Source of the DNA: a virus
Reading direction: 5' to 3' (one strand)
Virus genome (UHGV): UHGV-0350099
Length of the DNA stretch: 61,496 bases
Shown: positions 17,478 through 40,507 of the stretch, piece by piece
Layout of the letters: every line of letters begins with the position of its first letter
Numbering within the stretch: the first letter of the stretch is position 1
Position numbers and translations under genes: made by a program
The notes under the pieces: generated by a model
The model's input: the letters and a program-made list of their open reading frames with translations, nothing else
Told to the model about the DNA's origin: nothing
Databases searched by the model: none

Positions 17478-17552
17478 GATGGTGTAGCTCAGCGGTAGAG
17501 CAGTTGGCTGTTAACCAACTGGTCGGTGGTTCGAATCCACCCACCATCGCCA
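17478..17552 (+). tRNA. tRNA-Asn (anticodon GUU)
   Basis: Hand-folded cloverleaf: acceptor GATGGTG/CACCATC, D-stem GCTC/GAGC, anticodon loop CTGTTAA, T-loop GGTTCGAATCC, 3' CCA. Confidence 0.8.
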
Positions 17553-17557
17553 ATTTA

Positions 17558-17644
17558 GGGGAGTTAGTCCGTAGGGGCAGCGGGGTAGACTGTAAATCTA
17601 CTGTCATTGCGACTCGGGTGGTTCGACTCCATCACTCCCCACCA
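17558..17644 (+). tRNA. tRNA-Tyr (anticodon GUA), long variable arm
   Basis: Acceptor GGGGAGT/ACTCCCC, anticodon loop CTGTAAA, T-loop GGTTCGACTCC, CCA end; architecture like bacterial tRNA-Tyr. Confidence 0.7.
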
Positions 17645-17648
17645 AATT

Positions 17649-17724
17649 GCCGGTTTAGCTCAGTTGGTAGAGCGCCTGCCTTGTAAGCAGGATGTCAGCG
17701 GTTCGATCCCGTTAACCGGCACCA
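17649..17724 (+). tRNA. tRNA-Thr (anticodon UGU)
   Basis: Acceptor GCCGGTT/AACCGGC, D-stem GCTC/GAGC, anticodon arm CCTGC-CTTGTAA-GCAGG, T-loop GGTTCGATCC, CCA. Confidence 0.75.
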
Positions 17725-17732
17725 ACACAACA

Positions 17733-17944
17733 GGTAAGAGCATTGGGCGAATCGGCGATACTGACCCACAAGCCCGTAAATCGATAGAGTCAGACCAGTG
17801 CTCTTACCGTTGTGAGGAAGTGCAGCTCTTTGAAGCAACCAGAAGATAAGCATCTGGCTTCACAACACAACGATAAGATCATTACGGTTAATCGTCGTTC
17901 ATGTGCACAATGACTGGTCGAAAGGTAGTGATCTTACCGTTGTG
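17733..17944 (+). ncRNA. Three further long hairpins of the same family between tRNAs
   Basis: GGTAAGAGCATTGG/CCAGTGCTCTTACC (17733-17807); GTTGTGAGG/CTTCACAAC (17809-17857); CACAACGATAAGATC/GATCTTACCGTTGTG (17856-17944). Confidence 0.35.
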
Positions 17945-18044
17945 ATGAATGCACAGGCTGATGTGCCGCAACTACAGTAGTGCGCGCTTTGCGGGGCTTG
18001 CTACAACCCTGTGTCGGAGTTCAGCACCGACCATCACAATAGCT

Positions 18045-18131
18045 GGAGAGTAGGGAGCATGGTGCTCAAGCGGTCTTGAAATCCGTCCCATTGTGCAAAC
18101 GATGATGGTTCGATTCCATTACTCTCCGCCA
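18045..18131 (+). tRNA. tRNA-Ser(UGA)-like, long variable arm, possibly degenerate
   Basis: Acceptor GGAGAGT/ACTCTCC + CCA, anticodon loop CTTGAAA, T-loop GGTTCGATTCC; anticodon stem has a T-T mismatch and D-arm is atypical. Confidence 0.45.
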
Positions 18132-28372: not shown

Positions 28373-28644
28373 AAGAATTATGGCGCTTGTTGAGGAAGTC
28401 ACTCCTCTTACGCACTTTGTTTTGCCATGCCGGCAGTTAGCTTCTGCCTTTGACTATTCATGCGGCAACCCCGCATTTCGCCACAATGGGCAATTCACTT
28501 TTATGGAATAAACTGGCCGTTGTGTCGATTTAATTAGCATGGCCTTACCATGCTAATTTATTCAACTTGTACAATCCTACAAATCTATCCACTCAGGCTT
28601 ACACCGTCTTCGTTATTGTAGAAATGAGGATCATCAGCGTTGAA

Positions 28645-28860
28645 TCAGCTTAGAGCAACGACATTTGCTGCTGCTGGGCCTTTAGCACCATTCTCGATAG
28701 AGAATTCGACCTGCTGGCCTTCTTCCAAAGTGCGGAAATTATTACTCTGAATTGCCGAAAAATGTACAAAAACATCTTTACTGCCATCAGCAGGAGAAAT
28801 AAAGCCAAAGCCTTTATCAGAGTTAAACCATTTTACTAAACCAGTCATTTTATTAGACAT
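28645..28860 (-). CDS. cspA: Cold-shock protein, CspA family
   Basis: [38 protein letters not shown]... with RNP motifs KGFGFI and VFVHF; start trimmed to MSNK. Confidence 0.9.
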
Positions 28861-29075
28861 AGATATTACCTTCTTAATTTTGTGAGCCACATAGTGCGGC
28901 GAGAATTTGATCTGTATAGATTGGGACTTACTTAGGCACTTAAGGAGGAGACTCACGAAGAAGGGAAATCAGAAGATAACACTGAACTGAGACTGCTTTA
29001 CTAAAACTGCTTACATAAGGTCTGTCTTGCAAACCAACGATGCTATTAACGCATACCCCTTCTTTTCATGCAACC
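28861..29075 (-). promoter_or_regulatory. cspA-type promoter and long 5' UTR
   Basis: On minus strand reads TTGCAT -35-like, TTAAT -10-like and a cold-box-like TGCAAGACAGACC; about 180-nt leader as in enterobacterial cspA (recalled from memory). Confidence 0.5.
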
Positions 29076-33143: not shown

Positions 33144-35483
33144 ATGGCAAAAGGAAAATCCGCACTGGCACTTGCTCTGAAAAAGAAAATCGGTAGCAAC
33201 GACGAAATTCAGAAAGTAACTCATTGGATTGATACAGGCTTTCCACCGTTAAACAAAGCTATTTCTGGTCGTTACGATGGCGGCTTCCCATGTGGTCGTA
33301 TCGTCGAAGTATTCGGTCCACCAAGCGCGGGGAAATGTGTTACCGCAGACACCATGCTGCTGACGGAGCGTGGAATGGTAACAGTGAAAGAGTTGTTTGA
33401 GATTGAAGGGTACAAAGCGACATGCACTACTCGCGATGTAGAGCATAACGTTGGACTCATCAATGAAAATGGCGTGATAGAGAAGACCTCACACCTGACA
33501 TGGAACAACCGTCGCAAATTCAAGCGTATTAAGCTGGCATCAGGCGGTTATATCGAGGCTACGTTCCGTCACCCAATCCGTGTGGTTGACGACTTAGGTA
33601 ATGTCGTCTGGCGACATGCTGAAAAAATCAGTGTAGGCGACACGATTCCTTCAATGGTTGGCACACATCAATTCGGCGATCAGCACCTGGATGCCAATAT
33701 CGCAAAACTGATGGGCTATTTAATTGCTGACGGATACGTGGCCTCTGAAAATTCAGTGAATTTTTCTAACACAGATCCTTTCATCAAGGATGAGTACTAC
33801 CGCCTCATTTCGCTGGTATCAGACAAGATGCCAGTTGCGAGAAAACATAACGGCTCGGAAGACCATGTGCTGTTTAGCAAAGAGGTGCGTTCGCTGCTTT
33901 TTAAAGAATATGGTCTGGAGTATGAGAAAGCTGCTGGCAAGCAGGTTCCGTTGAGTGTGCGTCGCGCCAATAGCGAGGCTCAAATTGCATTCCTTCGCGG
34001 CTACTTTGAGCTGGAATGCCACGTCAATGATGGTCGCTGCATTGAGGTTGTGAGCGCGAGTGGGCTGCTGCTACAGCAAATTCGCCTCATGCTCCTGAAT
34101 CTGGGGATTACGTCAACTATCTCTGAAAAACACGTCGCGGGTTATGAAAATACATATTACCGGCTGTCATTCAGTGGCTCTAATTACGACCTTTTTCTGT
34201 CAACGATTGGTTTCGAATCTCCGGCACGTTTATCAGTGGCAACCAAACGGGACATTGGTTTTGACCGCACTTACTCAGGCTATGTTCCGCACATCAGCGG
34301 CTTAGTGAAATCACTCTACGAGTCGCTCACCAAGACCACCCGTGAAGACTACGCTCTGGTAGACCACGTTATTGGCCGCGGCGATCGTGTCGGAATAGAC
34401 AAACTGCGAGAAATCTATGTCTCCTTCATTGGCAGAAAGAATCGTTTTAACGAGCATCTGTTTGCACAACTGGCAGCGGTAATTGGCTCTAACTTGTTCT
34501 ACGACGAAGTCGTGGCTATTGAGGAAGGTGAAGCACCAACGTTCGACGTAGCGATGCCGGAAACACACTCTTTCTGGTCTAACGGGATTATCAGCCACAA
34601 CACATTCCTTGCAACAGCAGCGATGATCTCCGCTCAAAAACAAGATGGTCTGGCGGTATTCCTCGATCATGAAAACAGTTTTGACGTTGGCCTGGCTGTA
34701 GCCAATGGCCTGAACGCAGATGAGGATGACGGTCAGTGGGTATACAAGCAGCCAGATACCTTCGAAGACTCTGTAGAGTTGATCGGCACAATACTTAAAT
34801 TGGTTCGTGATGAAGAGCTTATCCCCGAATCAGCACCTATCTGTATCGTGGCTGACTCTCTTGCGTCTATGGTTCCGAACTCCAAAGCCGAGAAGTTCGA
34901 AAAGATGGCTGAAGGCACAGCCAAAGACAAAGATCAGCTAAACATGAACGACAATACGGCACTGGCTCGTGCGACGAGTGCGAACTTCCCTACTCTGGCT
35001 TTGTGGGCACGCAAATACAACGCCTGCATCATCTTCTTGAATCAGGTTCGCACAAAAATCGGTGTAATGTTTGGCGACCCTACTACGTCGCCAGGTGGAG
35101 ATTCACCGAAGTTTTACGCTTCTGTGCGTATCCGTCTTGGTGCATCGGTGATGAAGGATGGTAAAGAGAAGATCGGCCAGGACGTAGGCGCAGAATGCAT
35201 CAAAAACAAAGTTGCACCACCGTATGGCAAATGCACCTGGAAATTCTACTTCGATCCTACTCGTGGCCTCGACGTTATCGAATCGCTCGTCGAGTACATG
35301 CTGGAAGAAGGATACCTGCCAAAGAACGCCAGCGGGCGAGTTGAAATTGGTGACAAGAAATACACCAAATCGCAGATCGTCGAGATGTATCGGGAGAAGC
35401 CACTGGCTGAAATCATTGCGGCTTTGCAGGCAATCGACGACCGAAGAGCAAAAGACAACCCCACCGAGTCAGTAGAAGAGTAA
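33144..35483 (+). CDS. recA: RecA-like recombinase interrupted by an intein
   Basis: Exteins: GRIVEVFGPPSAGK|...|TFLATAAM, AVFLDHENSFD, CIVADSLASMVP, IFLNQVRTKIGVMFGDPTTSPGGDSPKFYASVRIRLG match RecA core motifs. Confidence 0.85.
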   Translation: MAKGKSALALALKKKIGSNDEIQKVTHWIDTGFPPLNKAISGRYDGGFPCGRIVEVFGPPSAGKCVTADTMLLTERGMVTVKELFEIEGYKATCTTRDVEHNVGLINENGVIEKTSHLTWNNRRKFKRIKLASGGYIEATFRHPIRVVDDLGNVVWRHAEKISVGDTIPSMVGTHQFGDQHLDANIAKLMGYLIADGYVASENSVNFSNTDPFIKDEYYRLISLVSDKMPVARKHNGSEDHVLFSKEVRSLLFKEYGLEYEKAAGKQVPLSVRRANSEAQIAFLRGYFELECHVNDGRCIEVVSASGLLLQQIRLMLLNLGITSTISEKHVAGYENTYYRLSFSGSNYDLFLSTIGFESPARLSVATKRDIGFDRTYSGYVPHISGLVKSLYESLTKTTREDYALVDHVIGRGDRVGIDKLREIYVSFIGRKNRFNEHLFAQLAAVIGSNLFYDEVVAIEEGEAPTFDVAMPETHSFWSNGIISHNTFLATAAMISAQKQDGLAVFLDHENSFDVGLAVANGLNADEDDGQWVYKQPDTFEDSVELIGTILKLVRDEELIPESAPICIVADSLASMVPNSKAEKFEKMAEGTAKDKDQLNMNDNTALARATSANFPTLALWARKYNACIIFLNQVRTKIGVMFGDPTTSPGGDSPKFYASVRIRLGASVMKDGKEKIGQDVGAECIKNKVAPPYGKCTWKFYFDPTRGLDVIESLVEYMLEEGYLPKNASGRVEIGDKKYTKSQIVEMYREKPLAEIIAALQAIDDRRAKDNPTESVEE
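33336..34601 (+). mobile_element. Intein (422 aa) with LAGLIDADG homing endonuclease, inserted in the RecA P-loop
   Basis: Begins with Cys right after GPPSAGK, ends HN followed by Thr; LAGLIDADG-like LMGYLIADGYV and FLRGYFELECHV. Confidence 0.8.
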
Positions 35484-38224: not shown

Positions 38225-38708
38225 CCAACCACTGCGGTGAGTAGTCTGCTCACCGCATTCGTATCCAGCTCATTATCCACTGTAGTCAGTAACAAAACCT
38301 TCCTACATATCTGCTAACCACTGTAGCGAGTAGACAGCCTTTCATTCGCATCAAACAACCACTATGGTGAGTATTGGAGTGAGATGTCCAGCGGGTATCC
38401 ACTATGGTGAGTAAGCCTTTGCTGTTTTCAGTGGATATCCACTCGCCACAGTGGATACGCTCAAAGATGAGGGCGACAACAACCACTATAGACAGTAAAT
38501 TTTCCAAGATACCCAGTGACCACTAACCTCGCAGCCCTTGTTTCATCAGTGTTAGTGATCACTAACATTTAATTCAGTATTTGCATTCTACTGCCTACAG
38601 TGGTTATCAACAGATAACGATACTCACTATAGTGGATAGCGAATTACAGATATAAGTAAGGCTCACTACAGTGGATAGTGAGCCTTACTACTAACTACAG
38701 TGGTTGGG
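38225..38708. repeat. Iteron-like repeat array downstream of repA (incA-like copy-control candidate)
   Basis: About 11 copies of CCACTRTRG(N)GAGTA / CTACAGTGGWTA at roughly 40-bp spacing, both orientations; core CACTATAGTG is palindromic. Confidence 0.6.
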
Positions 38709-39764
38709 CTATTTGCGAGTCTTTGCCTTGCGCAACTCTTCGAGAAGCGCCAGTTCTTCTTTACTCAACATGACCATTTTGCCTTCTTTTTCGTCAGGCA
38801 CAACGTCGATAATGTCATCTTGATTCTCATCTGGGAGGCTATATTCCGTCTCATCATTATCGATTTTTGTTGATATTTGTGCCTGGCGTAACTTTGGCCG
38901 CCTATAGTGGATGACGAAGTAGACCGAGTTTCCGCGCTTAACTTCCGTGTAATCGAGATATCCTATCTCTCGCAGCTGTTCCATAGCCTTTCTTACCGTC
39001 GCATTCTGAGTAATAGTGCGACTTGTCAGATTAAGTCTGGCGCGTAAACGGGCTAGTGATATTGGTGCCGGATCAGGCGGCAAACTTTCAATAAAAGTAT
39101 AAAGCGCCTGAGCGGATTCTTTTCTTGAGAGTTCGTTTATAGCCCGGAGTTGCAGAAGAACCTTTTTGTCGAACTGGTAGAGTTCGAAAATCTTGGGATC
39201 TGCTTTCAGTTCGACCGTATCGTGCTTGACACTATATTTTGCCGTTTGCACAAGATGCGTTACGTAAAACTCATCAGAGCCTTTGCTACGGAACGAGATG
39301 GTATTTGTGGCAATACGGCTTAGCGAACTGTCCAGGCGTTTGCGTAACTTCGCTGATGACCTGGCGGTCGGAATGCCACACAGCCTTACAAACTCAACGA
39401 ACGGCAACGTGACAGTATCGCCAACGACCTTGTGTTTGGCAAACGCGTGGATTATTCCCACCCACGTTTTAAAGTCGTTATCCATATCAAGCCGAAGGCC
39501 AGAGATCCTTATGTCTTCGTACCCTTCGGCTTTTGCCAGAGACAGCTGTTTGAGTTCAGCAGAGGCATCCATAGAGACCATTTGCCCCTTTCTTCCTCTG
39601 GATGTCGATTTCAGCGTCGGAACGAAGAGGCCCAGACGCATCAAAGCAACAGGCTGAACAGTGTTATTAGTGTTAGGAACCAACGTAACAACTTCGCCTG
39701 TCTTTTTATCTGTTTCTGAAAATGCTTCAACGATCGCTATGTTTTTATTGCCGTTTTCGCTCAT
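38709..39764 (-). CDS. repA: Iteron-type plasmid replication initiator RepA (P1 RepA / RepFIB-like)
   Basis: 351 aa flanked by iteron arrays; [47 protein letters not shown] segments recalled as matching P1-type RepA (no search run). Confidence 0.8.
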
Positions 39765-39804
39765 TCCAAATGTCTCTTGTTATTCGACGGCTTTGGTGGC
39801 CTTT

Positions 39805-39930
39805 GCTGATTACAGTGGATAGTAGCACTCATCACAGCGGTTATCCTACCGTCTATAGTGGTTTTTCTCCTCTCTATAGTGGTTGCTTTGCTCCCTATAG
39901 TGGATTATTCGCTCTCTATAGTGGATATCG
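39805..39930. repeat. Origin iterons (6 direct repeats, about 21-bp spacing)
   Basis: YTCTATAGTGGWT cores at 39811, 39833, 39853, 39875, 39896, 39917. Confidence 0.7.
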
Positions 39931-39964
39931 ATCATGTCTGAAGGCAGATGGCACAACGGTTTGA

Positions 39965-40050
39965 GGTGGGCGGGGATCTTATTGGGTCTTTATGGGTCTC
40001 TTTGGTTCTCTTTGTGATCTGAATTACTGGATCGGGCCTGTGGATAAAAA
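39965..40050. promoter_or_regulatory. Degenerate GATC-heptamer region plus DnaA-box-like TGTGGATAA
   Basis: GGGATCTTATT/GGGTCTTTAT/GGGTCTCTTT/GTGATCT repeats; TGTGGATAA at 40039-40047. Confidence 0.45.
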
Positions 40051-40204
40051 TCAGAGGATTTCAAGAACAGGTAACTCTACTCTTCTGTGGATATTTAAGG
40101 ACATAAGAATCATGACTAAGAGTAGAGTTTAAAATATATCTATGTATATCAGTATGTTAATGAAGAATTAAGTCATTAAGTTATCCATAAAAGACAATGT
40201 GCTC

Positions 40205-40310
40205 TACTCTCTACAGTGGATATATACAGCTCTCCAGAGTGGTTGTTTTACTCTTCATAGCGGTTATTCAGCTCTCTACAGAGGTTTCTTTGCTCTCCAT
40301 AGTGGATGGC
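40205..40310. repeat. Second iteron set (5 repeats), part of duplicated origin module
   Basis: CTCTACAGTGG, CTCCAGAGTGG, CTTCATAGCGG, CTCTACAGAGG, CTCCATAGTGG at 21-22-bp spacing. Confidence 0.6.
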
Positions 40311-40344
40311 AACACCCTTTCAGACCAGTAACCGCAACGGCTAG

Positions 40345-40420
40345 AGGCGATCGGGGATCTCTTTGGATCTTCTATTTGATCTTACTTGGGATCTCTTATT
40401 TGGATCTATCCAGTGGATAA
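40345..40420. promoter_or_regulatory. Cluster of six GATC sites at 11-13-bp spacing plus DnaA-box-like CAGTGGATAA
   Basis: CGATCGGGGATCTCTTTGGATCTTCTATTTGATCTTACTTGGGATCTCTTATTTGGATCTATCCAGTGGATAA. Confidence 0.55.
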
Positions 40421-40507
40421 CTGGGATAAGTAAAACAGGCAAATGCAGATTAAGGTATGCCTAATGAGTTATCGTAGCATCGGCCAATAACTACTGAAAA
40501 AACGATT

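Follow-up and report, generated by a model that had tools for sequence, protein, structure and literature searches.

The replicon of P1 consists, in order, of tandem DnaA boxes, a run of five GATC heptamers, a GC-rich spacer, five iterons overlapping the repA promoter, repA itself and downstream iterons in two orientations. The P1 iterons are 19 bp long and unrelated in sequence to those described below. Opening of the P1 origin is brought about by DnaA and RepA (PMC5043065), and the titles of three papers indicate that replication of P1 and of pColV-K30 REPI is controlled by adenine methylation (Abeles & Austin, 1987; Gammie & Crosa, 1991; Abeles et al., 1993). In RepFIB replicons, iterons upstream of rep act as the origin and those downstream in control, a DnaA site is present and Rep is autoregulated via binding to iterons (PMC11983097). 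Here we describe the replicon of the virus genome UHGV-0350099, all 61,496 nucleotides of which were analysed (hereafter the window), and in particular the two origin modules lying in tandem upstream of its repA gene.

Two collinear origin modules next to repA

The repA gene (38709–39764, minus strand) encodes an iteron-binding initiator of the RepFIB family, a polypeptide of 351 amino acids containing both Rep3 domains, WH1 and WH2 (Pfam Rep3_N, 1.3e-10, and Rep3_C). A tblastn comparison revealed 62–63% identity with annotated RepA proteins of classical RepFIB replicons, and identity with the RepA of pMT1 and pHCM2 was 91–92%; public records likewise name the product RepA. The original prediction for this locus, that two consecutive units of iterons, GATC-type heptamers and a DnaA-box-like site lie upstream of the gene, was borne out for every element. 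Unit 1, proximal to repA (39803–40052), and unit 2, distal to it (40203–40432), are collinear homologues that each run from iterons through a GC-rich spacer and heptamers to a DnaA box. The pairwise alignment proposed as a check of their relationship resulted in a local score of 73 compared with 18.8 ± 2.7 for dinucleotide shuffles (z = 19.8), and the non-iteron part alone was also homologous (z = 9.5). All four arrays, the iterons and heptamers of both units, were independently reported by Tandem Repeats Finder. No homology was found past the DnaA boxes, where the spacer behind unit 1, compared with the flank behind unit 2, scored z = -0.3 (window) and 1.5 (pMT1), and the original extent of the duplicated segment is no longer recoverable.

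The iterons of unit 1 (39803–39931, plus strand; Tandem Repeats Finder and pattern match) are six direct 21-bp repeats with cores at 39812, 39834, 39855, 39876, 39897 and 39918 and a period of 21–22 bp, predicted to form both the repA operator and a RepA-binding array. Five of the six cores match A[CT]AGTGG[AT]T, compared with two canonical cores among the five of unit 2, in keeping with the expectation that the proximal unit holds the better iterons. The array is followed by a GC-rich spacer (39932–39968, plus strand; GC 0.50–0.53), which aligns with the spacer of unit 2 (CAACGG..GAGG), by six heptamers (39969–40035, plus strand) spaced at 10, 10, 10, 11 and 14 bp, and by a single DnaA box without mismatches (40039–40047, minus strand), reading TGTGGATAA on the plus strand and TTATCCACA on the minus strand. 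The box of pMT1 and pHCM2, TGTGTATAA, also conforms to TTATNCACA. Only heptamers 1, 5 and 6 are methylatable in the window, with GATC at 39975, 40016 and 40030, and the three inner ones are GGGTCT, GGGTCT and GGTTCT; two to three remaining GATC sites had been anticipated. With GATC in three of six heptamers, a single DnaA box and a score of 44 bits against a model of the origin core, unit 1 is a homologue of the P1 oriR-type core and not a canonical member. A fourth GATC on this side, at 39930, lies at the outer edge of the last iteron (39926–39933) within ATATCGATC and is kept in four of five aligned lineages; it is possibly an extra methylation-sensitive contact at the boundary of iteron array and spacer.

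Unit 2 opens with five direct 21-bp repeats (40203–40312, plus strand; Tandem Repeats Finder and pattern match), the cores of which are located at 40213, 40236, 40257, 40278 and 40299; the three deviant cores are AGAGTGGTT, ATAGCGGTT and ACAGAGGTT, and the CCAGnG variant of iteron 2 is common to the window, pMT1, Rahnella and Pantoea. Distal iterons had been described as more divergent, which is correct as to canonical cores (2/5) but not as to erosion, since the array is 83% invariant and the deviant iterons are themselves conserved. A GC-rich spacer (40313–40344, plus strand), delimited by alignment with unit 1, leads into a run of CGATCG and five GATC heptamers (40345–40408, plus strand), which was delimited by its GATC sites and the core model. 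GATC occurs at 40349, 40356, 40366, 40378, 40390 and 40403, so that the six predicted sites are present, although at spacings of 7, 10, 12, 12 and 13 bp rather than the 11–13 bp claimed. Six GATC in 64 bp is the maximum in the window, where the background is 4.2 GATC per kb (Poisson, ~4e-7 per position), and all of these sites are invariant in five lineages. By analogy with P1, the run is predicted to be the target of Dam and SeqA as well as the region of unwinding. The tandem DnaA boxes behind it (40412–40429, minus strand) read AGTGGATAA and then CTGGGATAA on the plus strand, with one and two mismatches, respectively; AGTGGATAA (40412–40420) thus agrees with the DnaA box at 8/9 positions, and relatives have TGTGAATAA and a second box at this site, as do single-module origins. 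Unit 2 therefore contains, in order, all the parts of a P1 oriR-type core, namely about five iterons, a spacer, about five GATC heptamers and tandem DnaA boxes. The nhmmer model of the core, which covers the spacer, heptamers and DnaA boxes, scored 92 bits here versus the 44 bits of unit 1. Homology of unit 2 extends, from ~40319 rightward, to the origin that other SSU5-like plasmids have in single copy.

The two units are separated by 150 bp (40053–40202) that are AT-rich in composition in the window lineage (GC 0.22–0.33) and 63% identical between the window and other lineages. DnaA-box-like sites are present in this spacer at 40086 (TGTGGATAT) and 40181 (TTATCCATA), the latter within a conserved AGTTATCCA block directly to the left of unit 2. 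The spacer was considered as an unwinding element and rejected, its AT-richness being lineage-specific (much less pronounced in the pMT1 group, as judged by eye) and the segment evolving neutrally.

Single and double modules among related replicons

The 2.2-kb replicon region of the window is 100% identical to that of Escherichia phage Cyrano and of many plasmids of E. coli and E. albertii, each of ~107 kb, and ~83% identical to that of S. Typhi pHCM2 and phage SSU5; for Y. pestis pMT1, identity over the origin region alone is ~81%. Based on this likeness over replicon and flanks, and on ASCH-like and SbcCD-like flanking genes common to the window and relatives of the SSU5 group, the window is identified from its sequence as an E. 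coli phage-plasmid of the SSU5/pMT1/pHCM2 type. Close relatives are assigned to IncFIB by MOB-suite, and the IncFIB replicon type of pHCM2 and pMT1 is routinely typed, but the origin region is left without annotation in all public records inspected. A mis-assembly, which had been named as grounds for refuting a double origin, is excluded because the region is identical in Cyrano and in dozens of independent complete plasmids. Units 1 and 2 were both present in 93/93 E. coli complete-genome plasmids with this replicon, and the duplicated region is conserved at ~80% identity in Yersinia, Salmonella, Enterobacter and Citrobacter; we found no point in support of an assembly artefact or a strain-specific rearrangement and give that explanation practically no credence.

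Origin regions were compared across 17 annotated plasmids and 80 loci from GTDB species representatives. One core adjoining repA was found at 36 loci (62–97 bits), two cores at 48 (proximal 17–62 bits, distal 58–96 bits) and a distal core only, behind a proximal iteron array, at 11 (40–80 bits). Single modules at repA are carried by classical RepFIB, a Salmonella FIB plasmid, Klebsiella IncFIB(K), large Pantoea plasmids and Kosakonia, and also by other SSU5-like plasmids from Klebsiella, Shigella/E. coli, K. michiganensis and Cronobacter. In these modules, as in P1 oriR, five iterons are followed by a GC-rich spacer, then by five GATC heptamers, to which a further CGATCG is often added, and finally by tandem DnaA boxes. 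Both states thus occur among related elements, a question the original prediction had raised, and the double state marks one clade: in a neighbour-joining tree of RepA, the 59 double and distal-only loci form a single clade inside the RepFIB family, with two single-core Photorhabdus loci branching beside its Xenorhabdus members. Besides Xenorhabdus and the pMT1/pHCM2/SSU5/Cyrano group, the clade includes replicons of Kluyvera, Buttiauxella, Rahnella, Pantoea, Erwinia, Cedecea, Phytobacter, Franconibacter, Scandinavium and Tolumonas.

Across genera, proximal iterons 1 and 2 have the form ACAGTGGATAnTAnCACTCA..AGCGGTT, and in distal iteron 2 the CTATAG is replaced by CCAGnG. Because these positional characters are common to several genera, the sequences are most simply explained by a tandem duplication that occurred once, long ago, at the base of one sub-clade of RepFIB. 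We used these characters since a neighbour-joining tree of the ~120-nt cores was too noisy to serve as proof of proximal and distal orthology. The duplication is common to replicons with RepA proteins only 62–77% identical to that of the window. The duplication that had been predicted therefore proved to be a true tandem copy of a complete origin module, though of ancient and not recent date, and we hold these evolutionary statements with high confidence. In 47/48 double loci the proximal core scored below the distal one. The 11 lineages without a proximal core retain the proximal iterons together with a complete distal module, which indicates that the distal module can be the sole origin; in four of them (L036, L037, L060 and L061) a DnaA box is present on the left flank of the distal module.

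GATC loss, selection and the proposed roles of the two units

Presence of GATC was counted on distinct sequences for each of heptamers H1 to H5. Counts for H1 to H5 were 36, 34, 35, 36 and 32 in the single origins (n=36), 11, 11, 11, 10 and 11 in the distal-only cores (n=11), 47, 46, 47, 43 and 47 in the distal units of double loci (n=47) and 44, 0, 18, 45 and 45 in their proximal units (n=47). Proximal heptamer 2 was never GATC (0/47), the lineages having GGGTCT, GGAACT, GGGCCT or TGACCT instead; at heptamers 1, 4 and 5, GATC had been kept in 94–96% of the 47 sequences. Loss of GATC from the proximal unit is thus position-specific, which is not the pattern of free decay.

Conservation was assessed in an alignment of the window, pMT1, pHCM2, an Enterobacter plasmid and E. 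coli CT29, with the four-fold degenerate sites of repA (53% invariant) as neutral reference. The inter-unit spacer did not differ from neutral (53% invariant, P = 0.47), in contrast to the iterons (81%, P = 3.5e-11) and heptamers (82%, P = 5e-7) of unit 1 and the iterons (83%, P = 4e-11) and heptamers (77%, P = 7e-5) of unit 2. Both units are under purifying selection and the spacer between them is neutral. The three heptamers of unit 1 that lack GATC are near-invariant in the five sequences, only CT29 differing by one base (GGTTCT for the second GGGTCT), and the GGGTCT and GGTTCT substitutions are common to the window and Rahnella, where RepA is 76–78% identical. Of the 'complementary decay' originally proposed for the two units, the asymmetry is confirmed in the direction claimed; decay is a poor description of the proximal heptamers, given their position-specific loss of GATC and 82% invariance. 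Recent recombination was rejected as a source of the conservation of unit 1; along repA no identical tract was detected, synonymous codon identity being mildly higher at the 5' end (0.76 vs 0.56–0.66). An open reading frame of 46 amino acids (39992–40132) was likewise rejected as its cause: by eye, its start is ATG in the window and GTG in pMT1 and the frame is broken in Rahnella and Pantoea, and its C-terminal half falls in neutrally evolving DNA.

A candidate promoter of repA, with the extended -10 element TGCTACTAT (39827–39819, minus strand; fitting TGnTAnnnT), is located between proximal iterons 1 and 2. At this position TGnTAnTAT occurs in 51/60 clade loci, including lineages without the proximal core, and an extended -10 was absent from the equivalent distal position in 5/5 loci checked. 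RepA bound to iterons 1 and 2 would cover the element, matching the autoregulation described for RepFIB (PMC11983097). Two further matches, both from a two-hexamer promoter scan, were rejected as the main repA promoter in favour of this element: TCGATA-16-AATAAT in unit 1 (39931–39904), which by eye is not conserved in pMT1, and TTAACA-16-TATATT (40160–40133), which lies in the neutral spacer and is not conserved in the pMT1 group. The latter (40133–40160, minus strand) is the best sigma-70-like match of the region (10/12) and points through unit 1 toward repA; it could drive lineage-specific read-through across unit 1.

Subfunctionalisation is the best reading of this asymmetric divergence because the proximal copy alone has the conserved promoter-like element and the distal copy alone the full canonical core. 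Of the two outcomes originally suggested, subfunctionalisation or an alternate origin, the former is thus the better supported, and unit 1 may also fire as the latter. As a mechanism, we propose an ancestral module of five RepA iterons, a GC-rich spacer, five GATC heptamers and tandem DnaA boxes with the repA promoter inside it, which would have undergone a single tandem duplication followed by a split of the ancestral jobs between the copies. RepA monomers on the 21-bp iterons would all lie on one face of the helix and, together with DnaA on the flanking boxes, would bring about opening of the T-rich heptamer run. Dam methylation of the heptamer GATC sites would be required, and the hemimethylated origin would be sequestered by SeqA after firing. 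Having kept the whole canonical core, the distal copy (40203–40432) would serve as the principal origin. At the proximal copy (39803–40052), RepA on the best iterons around the extended -10 would repress its own gene, and this array probably pairs with the distal and downstream arrays (handcuffing). The proximal core, conserved and methylation-poor, would most likely be a weak auxiliary origin or a control element binding RepA and DnaA. Which unit fires, and the parts played by Dam, SeqA, DnaA and autorepression, we infer by analogy with P1 oriR and RepFIB. On that footing, we consider a division of labour, with unit 2 as principal origin and unit 1 as repA operator plus methylation-poor core, to be moderately probable.

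Several observations weigh against such a division. With its conservation, three remaining GATC sites and a DnaA box free of mismatches, the proximal core may still fire, and the first distal DnaA box of the window matches at only 8/9 positions where the proximal one is perfect. At one locus (L065), 1–470 nt upstream of rep in a Buttiauxella metagenome-assembled genome (DASXXQ010000321.1), the proximal unit is intact, with five iterons, four GATC and TGTGGATAA, and the distal unit amounts to one iteron and three GATC. This is the only reciprocal case in the 48 doubles, and evidently either copy could serve after the duplication, in L065 the proximal one alone. The five aligned sequences behind the conservation values represent ~3 independent lineages. 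Finally, the promoter was assigned from a motif and not from a mapped transcription start, and a two-hexamer promoter scan missed the extended -10.

These observations bear on the alternatives as well. Both units might be active under different control, unit 2 being Dam-dependent and sequestered by SeqA, and the methylation-poor unit 1 firing under other conditions of methylation or sequestration, for example in another host, growth state or phase of the life cycle, or else serving, through its GATC loss, to uncouple repA expression from sequestration. Purifying selection on the proximal core, clade-wide retention of its DnaA box and of GATC at heptamers 1, 4 and 5, and L065, where the proximal unit stands alone, all fit such an arrangement, as does the varied replacement of the heptamer 2 GATC (GGTC, GAAC, GGCC and GACC), which suggests repeated or selected loss over drift. 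The 11 lineages wholly without a proximal core do not, and non-phage plasmids of Rahnella and Pantoea are arranged alike, so there is no tie to a lytic phase; overall we regard two differently controlled active origins as unlikely. Reversed roles, with unit 1 as the real origin and unit 2 as a control or incompatibility locus titrating RepA, DnaA and SeqA, or as an unused spare, appear more doubtful again. The origin does adjoin repA in 36/36 single-module relatives, the iterons of unit 1 are the most canonical and its DnaA box is alone in the window in having no mismatch, and L065 keeps the proximal and loses the distal unit. However, the distal core is canonical in 47/48 doubles and the sole core in 11 lineages, a titration locus has no need for a GATC run, spacer and tandem DnaA boxes conserved like those of true origins, and a control array is already present downstream of repA.

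If 'complementary decay' is taken literally, the segment of proximal heptamers and DnaA box is a relic without function, on its way to being lost, and the iterons are the only part of the proximal unit that counts. We consider this very improbable, even though the proximal core is completely lost in 11 lineages, always scores under canonical cores and in most lineages lacks the second DnaA box. At 82% invariant against 53% neutral (P = 5e-7) the segment contrasts with the adjacent spacer, the rate of which equals the neutral one; GATC has been lost at heptamers 2 and 3 only, heptamers 1, 4 and 5 keeping it in 94–96% of 47 sequences; and identical GGGTCT and GGTTCT occur in Rahnella despite a RepA identity of only 76–78%. 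Returning to a division of labour, a more speculative proposal, to which we would assign a low probability, is that the duplicate separates functions that a single P1/RepFIB-type origin combines, the distal copy being sequestered after firing via its complete set of hemimethylated GATC sites while repA expression and the loading of RepA and DnaA at the promoter-proximal copy escape, or a methylation-insensitive second initiation site stays available there. If true, this would represent cis-regulatory duplication, degeneration and complementation with convergent, selected loss of a methylation site (heptamer 2, 47/47, by at least four substitutions), in replicons that include pMT1 and pHCM2.

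The wider replicon and its comparison with known systems

Behind the 3' end of repA, an array of RepA iterons (38275–38705, both strands) has minus-strand cores at 38275, 38316, 38357, 38397 and 38481 and plus-strand cores at 38448, 38597, 38629, 38668 and 38697, all ten of which match A[CT]AGTGG[AT]T. With 11 cores upstream and 10 downstream, the replicon has iterons on both sides of rep, as is characteristic of RepFIB. The downstream array corresponds to P1 incA and to the RepFIB repeats E–K and would accordingly control copy number (PMC11983097 for RepFIB); dependence on RepA and incompatibility exerted by iterons are likewise predicted by analogy with RepFIB. All 21 arrayed iterons sit within the replicon. 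A loose iteron-core pattern also matched at 12 scattered places across the other 59 kb of the window and once inside repA, never as part of a 21-bp array. An isolated canonical core, ATAGTGGAT (context GCCTATAGTGGATGA), is located inside the 3' end of the repA coding sequence (38904–38912, plus strand).

Elsewhere on the phage-plasmid, a gene at 33144–35483 (plus strand) encodes a RecA homologue of 779 amino acids that is split by an intein, which contains a homing-endonuclease domain of the LAGLIDADG type (Pfam RecA, Intein_splicing and LAGLIDADG_3). A full-length match to the cspA thermoregulator 5' untranslated region (28620–29038, minus strand; Rfam RF01766, 187.6 bits) implies that a cold-shock-type cspA homologue is carried, and a cluster of four tRNA genes (17478–18131, plus strand) specifies Asn-GTT, Tyr-GTA, Thr-TGT and Ser-TGA.

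Elements maintained by this replicon include Y. pestis pMT1, S. Typhi pHCM2 and many plasmids of Pantoea, Erwinia and Rahnella, along with the common SSU5-like phage-plasmids of E. coli, Enterobacter and Citrobacter; the plasmid clade is large and medically relevant. A conserved origin with two cores affects the choice of sequence for minimal replicons, curing cassettes and incompatibility determinants, and also annotation by automated origin finders. For the parts of a P1-type origin the loci provide a natural series, from single core and double core to loss of the proximal core and one reciprocal case. Since one paralogue has lost Dam sites in a position-specific and possibly convergent manner, the coupling of initiator expression to methylation and sequestration can be tested directly.

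Compared with the P1 replicon (oriR with incC iterons, repA and incA), the layout and order of elements are alike, and unit 2 matches the P1 core element for element. P1 has one origin core where the replicon described here has two in tandem, of which unit 1 differs from the P1 core in its three GATC heptamers of six and its single DnaA box, and the RepA of the window is closer to that of RepFIB. With RepFIB (F, P307, pColV-K30 REPI, pO157) it shares iterons flanking rep, a homologous core (loci L014 and L016) and a RepA of 62–63% identity. Unlike the window, classical RepFIB has a single module of about five iterons, five GATC heptamers and DnaA boxes without a second core, and its iterons are of the ACAGCTTAT type.

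The SSU5-like replicons with a single origin, of the Klebsiella pR48_3 type and the Shigella/E. coli rep_cluster_488 type, share backbone and flanking genes with the window. The right half of unit 2 has its orthologue, at 70–79% identity, in their core of heptamers and DnaA boxes together with its right flank (..GGATAAGTAAAACAGGCA..). These replicons carry another rep and iteron cassette, with ACCGCTGACAGCATAC iterons and one module, in contrast to the TAGTGG iterons and double origin of the window. As these single-origin phage-plasmids exist, a double origin is not needed for the phage-plasmid lifestyle. In the stretches compared (window 40319–40507 with 2490–2669 of L004 and 2500–2690 of L005), it looks as if replicon cassettes had been exchanged with the conserved origin core as their right-hand junction.

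Several origins or iteron clusters served by one initiator, with looping or handcuffing, are a feature of R6K (alpha, beta and gamma), F (ori-1 and ori-2) and the split clusters of RK2 oriV. The origins of these plasmids are, to our knowledge, not tandem paralogues of one complete core, and we know of no asymmetric, position-specific loss of Dam sites there. We found no publication that describes a duplicated origin for pMT1, pHCM2, SSU5 or plasmids of Pantoea, in a search that did not extend to the original pMT1 and pHCM2 sequence papers, where an earlier mention is possible. Set beside these systems, the components of the replicon are all well known, and what appears to be new is the ancient tandem duplication of an origin core and the position-specific loss of methylation sites in its promoter-proximal paralogue, a refinement of iteron-plasmid biology rather than a new kind of system.

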